From: a virus
Lineage: Duplodnaviria > Heunggongvirae > Uroviricota > Caudoviricetes
Direction: 5' to 3' (one strand)
IMG/VR virus record: IMGVR_UViG_2563366869_000004
Length of the DNA stretch: 13,226 nt
Position 1 is the stretch's first letter, and the number at the start of each line of letters is the position of its first letter. The position numbers and the translations under genes are program-made. Under the pieces are notes generated by a model. The model saw only the letters and a program-made list of their open reading frames with translations. It made no database searches and was not told the DNA's origin. Of the stretch, positions 1 to 9,494 are shown one piece after another.

Positions 1-1284
1 TTACAGACTTCTGGAAGGTTGCGCAGCTCTTACAACACGCGGTTGATCTTCCGCAGCGTCTTCCAGCGCACTTAAATCACGGTCTTTCACTTCTGGCATT
101 TTCAGCGCAGAGATTAAACCAATCACTGAATATGCCATGATCATAATGGCGATCGGATACCAGGATTCCGTCATGGTGCAGAAAATACCCGCCAGGATAG
201 GACCAAAACCGGAAGCGATAAGACCACCAATTTCTTTAGAAATGGCCATCCGGGTAAAGCGGTTTTTACAGCCGAACATTTCTGCCATGGTAATGTTTTC
301 CAGAGCAAATAATCCCAGCACCGCACAGTTATGAATCACAATCAGTGCAACCATAATGGTGCTCGGGGCATAGCTTTTATCTACAATGATAGAAAGCATT
401 GGCCATGCCAGCACAATCGCGGAGGTATTCATAATAATATACGGGATCCGGCGACCAATTTTATCGGATAACCAACCAAGGAACGGAATGGTCATAAAGC
501 CGAGAATCGAACTAATCATCAATGCATCTGTTGGAATTGCTTTGTTAAACAATAACGTCTGCACTAAATAGCCTGCAAGGAAAGTCTGAATTAACCCGGA
601 GTTACCCGCCTGACCAAAACGCAGCCCTGTTGCCAGCCAGAAGGATTTGCTCTGGAACATGCTACCAGCAGGTGCAGGTTTTGCTGTGGGTTGGTTGCTG
701 TCATTAACCTTCTCAAAGACCGGGCTTTCTTTCAGATTCATACGTAACCAGATAGCAAAGACCATCACGACAACGCTCGCCAGGAACGGTATACGCCATC
801 CCCACGCCAGCAGTTCCTCTTTACTGAGAATGAAGAACATAAAGGCCCAGATTGCCGTTGCGCTCAAGGTTCCGCAGTTAGTTCCCATAGCTACAAATGA
901 GGAGATAATTCCGCGCTTACCTTTTGGTGCATATTCCGCCAGCATCGTACCGGCACCGGAAATTTCCGCACCTGCACCCAACCCCTGAATAATACGCAGC
1001 GTCACCAGCAAGATGGGGGCAAAAACACCAATCTGTGCATAGGTCGGTAACACACCAATTAAGGTGGTACAGATCCCCATCATGGTGATGGTAATAAAGA
1101 GCATTTTTTTACGCCCTATTCTGTCGCCCATTTTGCCGAAAATAAATGCTCCGACAATACGCGCCACATAACCTGCACCGTAGGTTCCCATTGCCAAAAT
1201 TAACGCCATTGCCGTTGATGATTCAGGAAAAAATATTTCATGAAACACCAACGCTGCGCCGAGCGAATATAACTGGAAATCCAT
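1..1284 (-). CDS. ydfJ: MFS (metabolite:H+ symporter-type) transporter, apparently N-terminally truncated at the prophage junction
   Basis: Complete 427-codon ORF (ATG at 1282-1284, TAA at 1-3). Translation has many hydrophobic spans and the MFS loop motif GKMGDRIGRKKML. It aligns from memory to ShiA/ProP-type symporters but starts at the equivalent of mid-TM1 (DFQLYSLGAALVF vs ShiA DFLLYGITAALVF), so about 30 N-terminal residues are missing. Weak SD upstream. The ydfJ name rests on the Qin-like context and my recollection that K-12 YdfJ is 427 aa. Confidence 0.8.
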   Translation of the reverse strand: MDFQLYSLGAALVFHEIFFPESSTAMALILAMGTYGAGYVARIVGAFIFGKMGDRIGRKKMLFITITMMGICTTLIGVLPTYAQIGVFAPILLVTLRIIQGLGAGAEISGAGTMLAEYAPKGKRGIISSFVAMGTNCGTLSATAIWAFMFFILSKEELLAWGWRIPFLASVVVMVFAIWLRMNLKESPVFEKVNDSNQPTAKPAPAGSMFQSKSFWLATGLRFGQAGNSGLIQTFLAGYLVQTLLFNKAIPTDALMISSILGFMTIPFLGWLSDKIGRRIPYIIMNTSAIVLAWPMLSIIVDKSYAPSTIMVALIVIHNCAVLGLFALENITMAEMFGCKNRFTRMAISKEIGGLIASGFGPILAGIFCTMTESWYPIAIMIMAYSVIGLISALKMPEVKDRDLSALEDAAEDQPRVVRAAQPSRSL

Positions 1285-2000
1285 AATTCACAGATGTTTT
1301 TTCTCATTCTGTGGTTTCCTTGGCGCTTTCTAGGTTTTTTCAGATAGTTACATTTTTTCAAAAGCATCCTGAGTTCGATCTTACTATCTATCTGTGGCCT
1401 ATTTCTGTCCCATATATGCCCCAAAAAACACCCCAACAGATAAGCAATCTTTTCATGGTGTTACGCGTAAAAACAATAACGGCTTGAAATTATTCAATAC
1501 ACTCTCGAAAGTGCATCAGCCAACCGCAGAACGTTATTGCATACAACGTTTCTGCGGCATATCACGAAACGATTACTTAATGACTGGGACTTCAGACCAC
1601 TCAATATCCGGTACAATTATGTATCAACGCAGTTTAACAACACCCTATATTTAATCCAGAGTGCGAGCAACGTTGTCCCTTTCTCTTTTGCACTCTTAAA
1701 ATATACGATTACTTAAGTGAAGATGCTTGACGAATCGCCAAATAAAACATCTTCATCAGCATAAAAATCCATATATGATTGAAAATTTAGTCATTAATAC
1801 CATTCATATCTGAATACTAACCTAATACGCTTACTAACCGTGAGAAATCTTTTTTTTCGACTTAATCACTCGAAATAAACTTTCACTCAATTGAAAACAA
1901 TTAGCTACAATTATCATTGCAATATCAAATCAAACATAACAACTTGCATAAATTCTCATGGGATACAGCATCAGTTGTGCCAAACACATAAGGAATTGAA

Positions 2001-2198
2001 ATGGACGGAGAAAGCTTTAACTTTGATGACAATGATATTGAATTTATTGCTTCAATGTATGCATCATGTAAATTATCAGGAAGTATCGCCCCCATAATGC
2101 ATATAATGGTTAGCATTCCAAAAAATAAGAAAAAACAATTCTACGAACGAGTTGAGCATTATTGTAGTTTATATTCCAATAAAAACCCACCTTCTTAA
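2001..2198 (+). CDS. Small hypothetical protein (65 aa) in the AT-rich region
   Basis: ATG at 2001 is preceded by AAGGAA with about 5 nt spacing. ORF of 65 codons, no recognisable motif. Two other ORFs overlap it in other frames, so coding status is uncertain. Confidence 0.3.
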   Translation: MDGESFNFDDNDIEFIASMYASCKLSGSIAPIMHIMVSIPKNKKKQFYERVEHYCSLYSNKNPPS

Positions 2199-2329
2199 AT
2201 TCGCTGCATTCTAGTGGATTCCATTAAGAAAACAATGACATACACTCAAACACATCTTTTTTATCAACAGTGAATTTCAGTTCGGCCAGTTTTTACCAGC
2301 TATTATAAAAATAGCACCCATATAAAGTT

Positions 2330-2430
2330 TTTACCCCACAGGTACAGCTGGCCATTCGATAACCGCACTAAGGAAGTGCCAACACGACATCAGCAAGACC
2401 CGATATTTCTTCCATGCCGCCAGCAACGAT
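2330..2430 (-). pseudogene. Remnant of a second tail-fibre-assembly (tfa) 3' end
   Basis: 2341-2430 aligns base-by-base, same orientation, with the 3' end of the intact tfa at 3031-3120 (ctggccattc, caacacg, cagcaa, acccgata, ttcttcca, ccagcaacga shared). Minus-strand translation gives ...IEWPAVPVG*, a Tfa C-terminus, but the frame has an internal stop upstream. No ORF of 60 aa or more covers it. Confidence 0.5.
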
Positions 2431-2901
2431 GTTAAGGTTAAATTAATTATAAAAAAATATATTATAATTCCATCTTCGCATTAAATTTTAACCTTTAATC
2501 TCCACACGGAACAAGTTGCATAGGTGACTATATTAAGAAAACTTATAACCACCAAAAAGATTTGCTTTGCAAGCAAAAACAGTGACCATTGACTCTAAGA
2601 AAATTCCGATCTATTGTTAGTGTCATCAAAGTTACTTAACAGTATTCCGAAATGAAAATACAAAGCAAGCTAATTGTCTTATTAAACATTATCATTGCAT
2701 TTATATTATTTGAGCTTTTAGCTCAAAAATTTGGTTTGAGTACATTATTTTAAAGCAAGATAAACAATATCGGGCACTCTAGTTTTTATAATTAACAATT
2801 AAACGCCCATAAAATGTTATTTACTTTTCTTCGCTATTGTCATATCTTAATATAGTGGCTTACGCCACTCTACTTTCATCATATTTTGTACGTTTATGTA
2901 C

Positions 2902-2932
2902 TCGCCATGAAGCTCTTTCATGGCGATTTTTT
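2902..2932 (+). terminator. Rho-independent terminator, plus-strand sense
   Basis: Perfect 10-bp stem tcgccatgaa / ttcatggcga with 5-nt loop gctct, followed directly by tttttt (2927-2932). No A-run on the other side, so it is unidirectional and convergent with tfa. Confidence 0.5.
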
Positions 2933-3018
2933 ATTCTTAATCCAAGAACATACTCCCTACCTATAGAAAAATCACTTTTTGAACAAAAGAATAACGTATT
3001 TAGGTAATCATTACGAAT

Positions 3019-3600
3019 TTACCCTATAGGTGCTACTGGCCATTCAATATCCGGTGCAGTTGTTGTATTAACACGGTTCAGCAACACCCGATACTTCTTC
3101 CAGGCTTCCAGCAACGAGATTTCTTCCTCCGTTGCAATTTCCAGATCTGCAGCATCCTGAAGCGGCGCAATATGCTCACTGGCTACCTGCATCAGGTTGT
3201 TTTTTGTTTCTTCCGCCTCCCGGATCCGGAACAGTTTTTCTGCTTCCGTATCCTTCACCCAGGCTGTGCCGTTCCACTTCTGATATTCCCCTTCCGGCGA
3301 TAACCAGGTGACATTTTCCGGTAACGAGCCAAGTTCAGAAATAAATAACGCGTCGCCGGAAGCCACGTCATAGACGGTTTTTCCCCGATGATCTTCAACG
3401 AGATGCCACGATGCCTCATCACTGTTGAAAACAGCCACAAAGCCAGCCGGAATATCTGGCGGTGCAATATCGGTACTGTTTGCTGGCAGACCTGTATGAG
3501 GCGGAATATATGCGTCACCTTCACCAATAAATTCATTAGTTCCGGCCAGCAGATTATAAATTTTTATGGTCCGTGGTTGTTCACTCATTCTGAATGCCAT
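3019..3600 (-). CDS. tfa: Tail fibre assembly protein Tfa (lambda Tfa-like)
   Basis: 193-aa ORF beginning [48 protein letters not shown], which matches lambda Tfa as I remember it; ends ...IEWPVAPIG. Its ATG overlaps the stop of the upstream stf ORF (TAATG arrangement at 3598-3602). Confidence 0.9.
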
Positions 3601-5297
3601 TATGCAAGCCTCACAATATAGTTAAATGCGATGTTTTTGACGGTGTTTTCCGCGTTACCAGCAGCGTTAACGGTGATGGTGTGTCCATGTGAACCAATCG
3701 CAACGGAGTGCGTATGAGCACCAATACCGACAGTATGCGCGTGTGCACCTGCAGATGCTGCTGTGCCGGACAGTGAGTGGCTATGGTTACCATCTGTACT
3801 GGTATTAGCTAACGCCCCCGTAGACATACCTACTGAGCCTTGTACACCCCAGGTATTTTGACCTGAGCTTGTATAACCATATTGATAAGTATCTTTAAAA
3901 ACACTGGGGTTAAATCGACGGCCATCTCTATGGCTGTGATTACCAGCTGCATTCGTGCTGCCACTTAAACTATGGGTATGCGCACCAGTGTTATTCGTGG
4001 ATTTAGTGCCGTAATCAAACGACGATGTGGTTTTCGTCCCCAAATCAGTACTGGATGCGCTGGCGCTGTGGGTATGCGATTTTATGCCGTCCTGTTCCTG
4101 AGACAATACGGCACGACCACTGGCGGGCTTGCCCTTAATCGTCCAGCCACGCATATCAGGGATCACGCCTGACGGATAAGCGGCTGCAAGTTTCGGGTAG
4201 GCAGATTTGTCAAAAGTCTGCCCCTGCATCAGGGCATAACCAGACGGAACGGTATCTGATGGCCACGGGATTGGTGCGCCGACTGGGTAGCTTTCTGGTG
4301 GAAGATTTTTCGAGGTATAAACTTCTGCCCAGTCTTCCTCAAAACCATAACCGTCTCTTGAAGAACGGTAGAACAGACCACCATTTCTGTAATGCGCCTT
4401 CATCTGCAAGGTCCGGCAACTTCCGACTCCGGTATAGAAGTTAACCAGAATATAGCTGTCGCCAGAGCGGGTGACATTATAAGCGCCTGATTCGGCATTC
4501 CAGGGAACGCCACCATCCGCATCGGCATATGTATCCGTTGCCCTTCTGGCAAAAGCAGCCACATGCGCGGCGGTTAAAGTAATATCTTTGGAACCATCAA
4601 ACTCAACACCAGAAACCCGTCTTGGCGTTTGCAGCTTTGTTGCTGTTAATGCATTACCGTTCAGACTTGCGGACAGTTTGGTTCCAATAACCAGTTCGCC
4701 GGTTGCGTTATCAATAGCAAACGGTCTTAATGTATTCCAGCCACCATAAACATCACCTTGATTGGTAAGCAGCAGGTAAGTTTTAGCGCCATCATTACGC
4801 CATAATGCCCCATACTCCCCACCTATCATTCGAATCTGATTACCACCACGCGCTACAATTTCGTCTGTGGCAAAAAGTTTTTTGCACGACAAGTTATCGT
4901 TAACGATTAATGAATGAGACTCATAAAAACCACGCCCACTCTTAAAATCAAGGATAACGTCCGCCGCGATACATTCAGTCGCCGGATTTGTTGCCCCAAA
5001 CTTATAGGTCGTATCATTAACAACGAGATCAGCACCAGGTGCGGATATTGACAGGCCATCTTCGATAAACGCAAAAACAGGGAAAGCAGCGCCATCAACA
5101 TAGAACACAGAGCGCAAATCATCGCCCTTATTACTCATCATTATTGAGTGGATGGCTCGTTCATTGTTTTGATATTGCCAGAACATTCCATAAGCATAAC
5201 GCCCCCTGTCAGTCCAGCCACCAGGCATAACAAATCCGTTATTCGAGCAACCCACCAGCGATATCAGCAGGAACAGGCAGATCACAGGTTTTTTCAC
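3600..5297 (-). CDS. stf: Side tail fibre protein (lambda Stf-like C-terminal HxH tip domain) with an N-terminal lipoprotein-type signal peptide; probable deletion fusion
   Basis: 565-codon ORF. The C-terminal region ([75 protein letters not shown] ... [29 protein letters not shown]) has the repeated HxH motifs and the ending of lambda Stf. The N-terminus [17 protein letters not shown] is a signal peptide with lipobox LVGC. The start is GTG at 5297 with GGGAGA about 9 nt upstream, in a different frame from and overlapping the 3' end of the Rz-like gene. About 565 aa is short for a lambda-type Stf. Confidence 0.8.
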
Positions 5298-8294: not shown

Positions 8295-8768
8295 ACAGCG
8301 AATCAGATCAAATAAAACGCACATTTGTTAACATTTACACAAAGTCTGCGTGGGATATTCTGAAAGAATATCCATAATGTGGAGAGAATCTATTGAAGTG
8401 CATGGTGCCGGGGGCCTCCCGGTGAATTCAGTACCAGCACCTGAATCCACGATTATCCCATATACCTACTCGCTGATTGCCCCTCCGCACAGGGGGATTC
8501 ACCATGCCAGTTTCTTTTAACAAACTCCCCGCAAACCAGAGAACAGTCAACCGCCTGAATTGTGAAGTATTTAAAAATTTCTCCCGCTAACTGATACCCG
8601 GCTAACAGTCTGGCGTTTTCTTTTTCAGCAACGGGAAAGCAACAACTACCACACCCGCCACCAGCACACCGTCAGCCAGCACTGACATTATCCGGCTGCT
8701 GCAATGCCATTCACAAAAACAGTAAGCAATCACTTTTTACCGTAACAGGTGATAATCCAGATATGTAT

Positions 8769-9232: not shown

Positions 9233-9309
9233 TGGCGCGCTGTACTGGATTCGAACCAGTGACCGATTGCTTAGAAGGCAATTGCTCTGTCCGGCTGAGC
9301 TAACAACGC
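9233..9309 (-). tRNA. tRNA-Arg (anticodon UCU), phage-borne
   Basis: Minus-sense 77 nt folds as a cloverleaf: acceptor GCGTTGT/ACAGCGC (one G-U), D-arm GCTC-AGCCGGACA-GAGC, anticodon stem-loop ATTGC-CTTCTAA-GCAAT (UCU at 34-36), 5-nt variable loop, T-arm ACTGG-TTCGAAT-CCAGT, discriminator G, CCA encoded. Confidence 0.9.
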
Positions 9310-9418: not shown

Positions 9419-9494
9419 TGGTGGCCCTTGCTGGATTTGAACCAGCGACCTGGCGATTATGAGTCGCTCGCTCTCACCACTGAGCTAAAGGACC
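9419..9494 (-). tRNA. tRNA with CAU anticodon; closest to tRNA-Ile2 (lysidine, ileX-like), elongator Met not excluded
   Basis: Minus-sense 76 nt GGTCCTTTAGCTCAGTGGTGAGAGCGAGCGACTCATAATCGCCAGGTCGCTGGTTCAAATCCAGCAAGGGCCACCA. Acceptor GGTCCTT/AAGGGCC (one G-U), anticodon loop CTCATAA, T-loop TTCAAAT, CCA encoded. Strong resemblance to E. coli ileX as I recall it. Confidence 0.9.

Follow-up and report, generated by a model that had tools for sequence, protein, structure and literature searches.

What does a strong terminator close when it points straight at a phage tail fibre assembly gene? The question is raised by a stretch of 13,226 nucleotides from a tailed phage (Caudoviricetes; IMG/VR record IMGVR_UViG_2563366869_000004), hereafter the window, in which an AT-rich region lies between the truncated gene ydfJ and the tail fibre assembly gene tfa. 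A reading made from the letters alone, the sequence-only reading, had placed in this region a plus-strand intrinsic terminator and a decayed second copy of the tfa 3' end. Our comparisons suggest that the terminator marks the end of a moron, a small phage cargo module, which is conserved, unannotated and linked to tfa and which most likely encodes a YncL-like peptide with a structured 3' untranslated region (UTR). The region as a whole would form one end of a Qin-type lambdoid prophage remnant in ydfJ, the end that carries the cargo, and would be composed of stacked units of tfa 3' ends and downstream DNA, of which the module belongs to the newest; taken together, we regard this explanation as reasonably probable. 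The features discussed are collected in Table 1.

A conserved module convergent with tfa

On the plus strand, a G+C-containing hairpin directly followed by a U tract presents the expected layout of an intrinsic terminator, and the prediction is borne out by a terminator scan as well as by folding against shuffled sequences: the hairpin reaches -15.2 kcal/mol (z-score -6.4), a stability that not one of 200 shuffles attains. Its minus strand has no T-run, so that the hairpin should terminate transcription in one direction only. The sequence-only reading had linked this terminator to the open reading frame (ORF) at 2001-2198, here ORF65. That link proved wrong, as a nearer plus-strand ORF of 33 codons, ORF33, and a promoter-like site are found at 2652-2753 and 2589-2617, and ORF65 was rejected as the gene served by the terminator because the module occurs in phages lacking it. 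In contrast, comparison supports the broader idea that the plus strand carries an unannotated transcription unit, 'possibly an sRNA or small protein': a conserved promoter-like site, ORF and terminator travel together with tfa. Another ORF, which runs across the terminator (2837-3007), was discarded as a gene, because a deletion at 2927 shifts its frame in 4 of 25 variants.

Escherichia coli chromosomes, for example that of KSC9, match the window with 100% identity, and the arrangement spanning 1285-3100 is found in 578 of 5426 complete E. coli genomes. The module itself is present in 828 of these genomes and on 48 IMG/VR contigs; in strain IAI1 (NC_011741.1) it is located at 853047-853412. 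It stands directly after the tfa stop codon in the lambdoid phages ev099, mEp332 and PhiR70_1, and occurs as well in prophages at zinT, icd/sitABCD and argW. Among the 55 copies with enough flanking sequence, 53 are followed by tfa sequence (38 of them by a full-length gene), whereas the left neighbour varies: in 21 copies it is a tfa fragment (stub 2, see below), and the three sequenced phages have a region with an AraC-type regulator there. One locus in FCI51 (L009) carries the module without tfa behind it; conversely, in K-12 the module is missing next to the same tfa allele, and phages at other sites have it. No annotated feature lies under the module match in the 60 genome records sampled, and a literature search with DNA, RNA and peptide strings of the module retrieved no paper containing the sequence.

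Morons of lambdoid phages are extra genes with their own promoter and terminator beside the late genes, lambda bor and lom being examples. The module shares their sequence hallmarks: it is a small insert of low G+C content (28-30% against 46-52%) at a gene boundary of the late region, its cargo is flanked by a promoter-like site upstream and a predicted intrinsic terminator downstream, and it is present in some and absent from other closely similar phages. Unlike typical morons, it is convergent with the late operon and its cargo comprises 33 codons only; its expression in the lysogen is presumed. We envision a transcript that starts from the sigma-70-type promoter at 2589-2617 and consists of a leader of ~27 nt, the gene for a YncL-like single-helix inner-membrane protein and a 3' UTR of ~150 nt. 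Transcription of this unit, like any further read-through on the plus strand, would stop at the terminator, which lies 86 bp short of the tfa stop codon and might thereby keep the transcript from running antisense into the late operon. Conceivably, the conserved 3' end is released as a 3'-UTR-derived small RNA.

Which parts of the module are conserved? We compared 57 copies, corresponding to 25 unique sequences, which fall essentially into two lineages, type A and type B. The promoter-like site is variable at 21% of its columns; its -35 box TTGACT is invariant in both alignments, and its -10 box reads TATCGT in type B. The structured 3' element that ends in the terminator is variable at 11% of its columns, compared to 45% in the spacer upstream of it. 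Between types A and B, identity amounts to 79% in ORF33, to 66% in the spacer behind it (with indels), to 96% over 2853-2926 and to ~70% beyond the terminator, so that a block of near-identity is framed by flanks of 66-70%. The fold of the element is equally pronounced in both alleles (z-score -6.7 in each). In its two main hairpins, this block contains three substitutions, of which two lie in loops and one gives rise to a G-U wobble; with a fourth, 2926 A>C, the terminator loses its outermost pair.

Table 1. Features of the window, with positions and strands
Feature	Position	Strand	Description
ydfJ'	1-1284	-	left end of the window
AT-rich stretch	1285-3018		~28-39% G+C (G+C profile)
Two adjacent hairpins	1485-1563	-	just downstream of stub 3; -33.4 kcal/mol, z-score -5.0
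tfa stub 3	1576-1806	-	lambda-like, frameshifted 3' end; C-terminus PDIEWSEVPVIK, then stop
ORF65, hypothetical protein WP_000348576.1	2001-2198	+	between stubs 3 and 2; annotated in KSC9; outside the module
tfa stub 2	2331-2430	-	last ~33 codons of a replaced tfa, middle section decayed
Conserved tfa-linked module (putative moron cassette)	~2436-3018	+	~580 bp; abuts the tfa stop codon
Sigma-70-like promoter site	2589-2617	+	TTGACT, 17-nt spacer, TATTGT; 9 of 12 consensus positions
ORF33, MKIQSKLIVLLNIIIAFILFELLAQKFGLSTLF	2652-2753	+	predicted single-helix small membrane protein, YncL-like
Conserved structured 3' element	2853-2932	+	stem-loop 1 (2854-2869), AU-rich linker, small hairpin (2888-2901), terminator, U6
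Terminator hairpin	2902-2926	+	11 pairs (5 G-C), 3-nt loop; TTTTTT (U6) at 2927-2932
Intact tfaQ-type tail fibre assembly gene	3019-3600	-	193 residues; convergent with the module; annotated tfaQ; 95% identical to K-12 tfaQ
Truncated side tail fibre gene	3600-5297	-	565-codon ORF; truncated tail fibre pseudogene in the PGAP annotation

ORF33 and its likeness to YncL

ORF33 is open over its 33 codons in all 57 copies. Its codon variants comprise 12 synonymous and 7 non-synonymous, mostly conservative, changes, and variable sites are distributed 8/2/13 over codon positions 1, 2 and 3, i.e., only 2 of 23 affect the second position. Gap columns within the span of the ORF occur solely at the stop codon, and an indel of 5 nt follows immediately after it.

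A scan of ORF33 against NCBIfam returned YncL (NF000537) as the sole hit, with 25.0 bits (E 1.3e-5) for type A and 23.5 bits (E 3.7e-5) for type B. Precomputed Pfam matches also record a single family, again YncL (PF28073), marked as weak. By BLASTP, ORF33 and K-12 YncL share 11 of 28 residues (39%) in an ungapped alignment over residues 1-28; the Smith-Waterman score of 60 compares with 20 +/- 4 for composition-matched shuffles (maximum 54), and not one in 20,000 shuffles reaches it. YncL of K-12 (b4598) has 31 residues, nearly the length of ORF33, and in both proteins basic residues precede a single predicted transmembrane helix; N12, A16, L19-F20 and a C-terminal (R/K)FG motif are common to the two. 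Thus, ORF33 has the size, the topology and the similarity beyond mere composition that would be expected of a YncL-type protein. The two genes differ in their surroundings, since yncL resides in the chromosomal patD-ortT interval and ORF33 is found in phages directly after tfa, with a 3' UTR that is different from, and much longer than, that of yncL. On sequence grounds, we therefore describe the ORF33 product as a small membrane protein that is phage-borne and YncL-like, and not as an equivalog of YncL. The exact peptide is represented by only two unnamed calls in a collection of 15 billion proteins, and a HMMER search of 1.84 billion representatives recovered nothing beyond ORF33 itself and a frameshift variant of 43 residues.

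How might such a peptide act? Heat shock, minimal medium and stationary phase all induce YncL, an inner-membrane protein whose production leads to membrane depolarisation and nucleoid condensation (PMC12542507). By analogy with the chromosomal protein, the ORF33 peptide may insert in the inner membrane, where it would reduce the membrane potential or shift the lysogen to another stress state. If expressed, ORF33 would be a phage-carried paralogue of a membrane-depolarising host stress peptide and a simple, testable candidate for lysogenic conversion.

The equivalent place in the Qin prophage of K-12, between ydfJ' and tfaQ, is occupied on the same strand by the gene for another small hydrophobic protein, YnfT (37 residues; locus L005, 4891-5004, plus strand). 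We considered YnfT as a relative of ORF33 and rejected it, as the two have no homology. With YnfT in K-12 and ORF33 in the window, both variants of this prophage end thus carry a gene for a small membrane protein.

Weighing the alternatives

Several observations weigh against a YncL-like moron. The promoter is a consensus match only, and the regional count of such sites is not above chance (6 found, 9.2 expected). No Shine-Dalgarno sequence precedes ORF33 (UUCCGAAAUG), unlike K-12 yncL with its AAGGUGG; the NF000537 scores lie below the curated NCBI cut-off of 35 bits, and a local Pfam scan of ORF33 found nothing. With diversity being essentially that of two lineages, the coding signature derives mostly from one deep A/B split, and the substitutions are few and non-independent. 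The hairpins contain no double changes, so they offer no covariation in favour of an RNA structure. Moreover, the near-identity over 2853-2926 may reflect a patch of recombined DNA and not selection, because the same two loci also agree to 97-100% in the left part of the module (2331-2545). Finally, as judged from the sequence collections scanned, only E. coli and its phages contain the module.

Might the module then be inert AT-rich phage DNA, its hairpin a relic terminator and ORF33 open only through the recent common descent of its copies? Overall diversity is indeed low, with most copies >95% identical, the missing Shine-Dalgarno sequence fits, and annotation pipelines essentially never call ORF33; the module is also missing from every GTDB species-representative genome (no hits with the core of the 3' element and back-translated ORF33). 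We nonetheless consider inert DNA rather unlikely. Flanking segments of types A and B differ by 20-35% and contain indels, yet the frame of 33 codons is kept with changes that are mostly synonymous or conservative, and the 3' element has stayed near-identical despite these divergent flanks. In addition, viable phages retain the module, and the similarity to YncL is far above that of composition-matched shuffles. An alternative in which the peptide matters, but as the toxin of a type I toxin-antitoxin pair, appears very improbable. ORF33 would be a fitting small hydrophobic peptide, given the depolarisation caused by YncL production (PMC12542507), and an antisense RNA across it could be driven from a minus-strand promoter-like site (2843->2814, ATGACA-18-TAACAT), the -10 box of which is kept as TAATAT in type B. 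The -35 box of this site is however not conserved in type B, a conserved minus-strand terminator or structured antisense region is lacking, a PADLOC search for defence systems gave no hit, and Rfam revealed no match to a known type I family.

Alternatively, the 3' element (~2855-2932) may be a stand-alone gene for an Hfq-type small RNA with its own promoter, and ORF33 may be separate or non-functional. The element is the most conserved part of the module, and it is built in a way typical of small RNAs, with a stem-loop at its 5' end, a single-stranded AU-rich stretch and a terminator that carries U6. In this respect it resembles Hfq-dependent small RNAs that derive from prophages or 3' UTRs, such as PasA-D, KilS and STnc100, with which it shares a lambdoid prophage setting and the succession of 5' hairpin, AU-rich stretch and terminator ending in a U tract; PasA-D are known as prophage-encoded Hfq small RNAs (PMC8550237; bioRxiv 10.64898/2026.05.13.724894). 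A TTTACT-17-TATCTT site (8 of 12 consensus positions) would start an RNA at ~2855. This site was however unreported by the promoter scan, and its -10 box varies at 3 of 6 positions among alleles, which leaves the element with no conserved promoter just upstream; the U6 and AU-rich linker of type A are also not fully matched in type B, where the U tract is interrupted (CUUUCUU). No Rfam family reaches threshold in 1285-3018, the best match being MicC with 23.8 bits and an E value of 1.1, which, like the other hits, we judge to be noise. The element, a candidate for Hfq binding, has no sequence match to PasA-D, KilS or STnc100, and pairing of its single-stranded stretch with the start regions of yncL or ORF33 is no better than that of shuffled sequences. 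An independent small RNA gene is hence doubtful in our view. PasB in particular was considered and rejected: its probe sequence is absent from the window, and in E2348/69 its place is not behind tfa but between gpJ and the gene for a tail assembly protein.

The YncL-like moron thus remains our preferred reading, and in its modest form it adds a new example to a known kind of phage cargo, at the meeting point of phage morons and the YncL family. A bolder version can be imagined, in which one transcript yields both a YncL-like membrane peptide and a small RNA of ~78 nt from its 3' UTR. The module would then be a hitherto unrecognised two-part phage regulator, the RNA acting on host mRNAs and the peptide lowering the potential of the lysogen, with consequences for stress tolerance or as a block to superinfection. 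We regard this version as tentative and on the whole improbable. If true, a two-part regulator would be carried by ~15% of sequenced E. coli and would move between phages together with the tail fibre cassette. Small membrane proteins and prophage-borne RNAs are both routinely missed by annotation.

Stacked tfa 3' ends and the neighbourhood of the module

How did the module come to lie here? The left end of the window is ydfJ, the gene that is truncated by the Qin prophage, and the AT-rich stretch behind it contains the remains of more than one tfa. The sequence-only reading had described 2330-2430 as a degenerate direct copy of the tfa 3' end that even keeps a Tfa-like C-terminus, and alignment to the intact gene upholds both statements. 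Against 3018-3117, the fragment (stub 2) reaches a Smith-Waterman score of 68, compared to 15.9 +/- 2.2 for shuffles (maximum 25, n=500), and blastn finds 73.5% identity over 102 nt (E 4e-10). At the protein level, 18 of its 32 residues are identical to Tfa residues 162-193, including AWKKYRVLL and IEWP (E 6e-8), and a repeat search places it in register with the intact gene. The similarity to the Tfa C-terminus is thus significant in DNA and protein alike. As only the last ~33 codons are left, the middle 10 of which have decayed, stub 2 is a pseudogene fragment and not a gene, and it offers no open frame with a full-length Caudo_TAP domain (PF02413). The intact tfa matches the same profile with 144 bits over 130 of 131 positions. 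In two other genomes, the PGAP annotation lists the fragment as a pseudogene for tail fibre assembly with a frameshift. Homology to tfa ends at 2430, and the module starts ~5 bp further on.

A further fragment at 1576-1806, stub 3, had been overlooked. Its identity to the resident tfa amounts to 76.6% over 77 nt, and that to the 3' end of lambda orf-194 to 81-84%; the lambda homology runs ~50 bp past the lambda tfa stop codon to include the downstream hairpins. By tblastn, its identities (14 of 24 and 6 of 10) fall into two different frames. The sequence of the adjacent hairpins is common to K-12 Qin and the argW prophage locus (L002), the alignment reaching ~1563, and these hairpins are probably an old terminator region of the late operon. 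We interpret both stubs as recombination scars, pseudogenes without function.

All three tfa ends stand in register and in direct orientation, with spacings of 756 and 688 bp. They are 71-88% alike, each resembles the tfa of a different phage, and the DNA downstream differs for each. The region may accordingly be partitioned into three stacked units, each made of a tfa 3' end and its downstream DNA. We envision that an incoming stf-tfa cassette with its own downstream cargo has twice replaced the resident tail fibre genes, and that each time one crossover inside the old tfa left a 3' stub behind, namely stubs 3 and 2. The newest unit would then consist of the intact tfa and the AT-rich module. 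Comparison with K-12 is consistent with such a history. Its Qin prophage shares 1-1557, i.e., ydfJ and most of the hairpin pair (a three-way alignment continues to ~1563), and its homology to the resident tfa begins exactly at the stop codon; between these points it has ynfT-ydfK-pinQ instead of the DNA in the window. Since K-12 shares both flanks and not the DNA between them, the tfa stop codon and the old terminator are mosaic boundaries. A related layout is known from DLP12-type tfaD-ybcY-tfaX, seen in phages 2G7b and PhiR26_1, where behind a full tfa there likewise come a cargo gene convergent with it and then a tfa 3' fragment in the orientation of the full gene; there the cargo is a methyltransferase dependent on S-adenosylmethionine, whereas the window has another cargo and two stacked stubs. 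Repeated replacement of tail fibre cassette and cargo is the simplest reading of this pattern, and the stacked stubs would provide a clear, datable record of such swaps between prophages.

The sequence-only reading had left a choice between cassette exchange and tandem duplication, and had suggested a comparison with invertase-controlled fibre cassettes. Exchange is favoured by the stub 2 identity of only ~74% to the resident tfa, compared to 95% between the latter and K-12 tfaQ, the lambda-like character of stub 3 and the distinct downstream DNA; duplication is disfavoured. Could the copies instead be the remains of an invertase-controlled alternative tail fibre segment, like Mu G, P1 C or e14 P? 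The invertase gene pinQ of K-12 Qin, located beside the same tfa allele, would invite this idea. In the window, all three tfa ends are direct rather than inverted, no invertase gene of the Gin/Pin type is annotated between ydfJ and tfa, where the longest ORF has 86 codons, and the divergence of the copies, each with a different phage's tfa as its likeness and its own downstream DNA, argues against a segment of this kind as much as against a local tandem duplication. We consider either origin hardly credible, and largely refuted already.

Some further features of the region deserve mention. ORF65 is preceded by a good Shine-Dalgarno sequence and, at 1882-1911, by a promoter-like site, and it shows a weak GlgS-like match (E 0.026); relative to the copy in L002 it shows 2 synonymous and 6 non-synonymous differences and thus no clear purifying selection. 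Promoter and ORF33 of the module are bracketed by a perfect 13-bp inverted repeat, 2526-2538 and 2845-2857 (CACTATATTAAGA and TCTTAATATAGTG; 20 of 25 positions over 25 nt), which is intact in type-A alleles and degraded in type B, and which could reflect chance, a regulator site or long-range pairing. Phages ev099, mEp332 and PhiR70_1 carry an AraC-family regulator gene and remnants of an IS2-type transposase ~1 kb to the left of the module; an integrase lies beyond these in ev099, and the records of mEp332 and PhiR70_1 end before that point. A 37-residue ORF annotated upstream of ORF33 in PhiR70_1 was dismissed, as the corresponding sequence in the window has a stop and no start codon.

IS009 (RF02111), a family typed 'Gene' in Rfam, aligns with the 3' portion of the intact tfa coding sequence (3059-3257, minus strand, 225 bits) and, below threshold, with both stubs (1615-1806 with 40.8 bits in stub 3, and 2370-2445). 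This 'RNA family' here tracks a conserved coding segment of tfa, not an RNA gene; the flanks of PasB are also rich in IS009 hits (bioRxiv 10.64898/2026.05.13.724894). Next to tfa, the ORF at 3600-5297 joins a lipoprotein-like signal peptide, its N-terminus being different from that of K-12 RzoQ, to the tail fibre domains Gp34_trimer, Collar and gp37_C. Deeper inside the prophage, a match to the small RNA STnc100 (110 bits) is located at 8346-8536 and two tRNA genes at 9236-9309 and 9422-9494, all on the minus strand.

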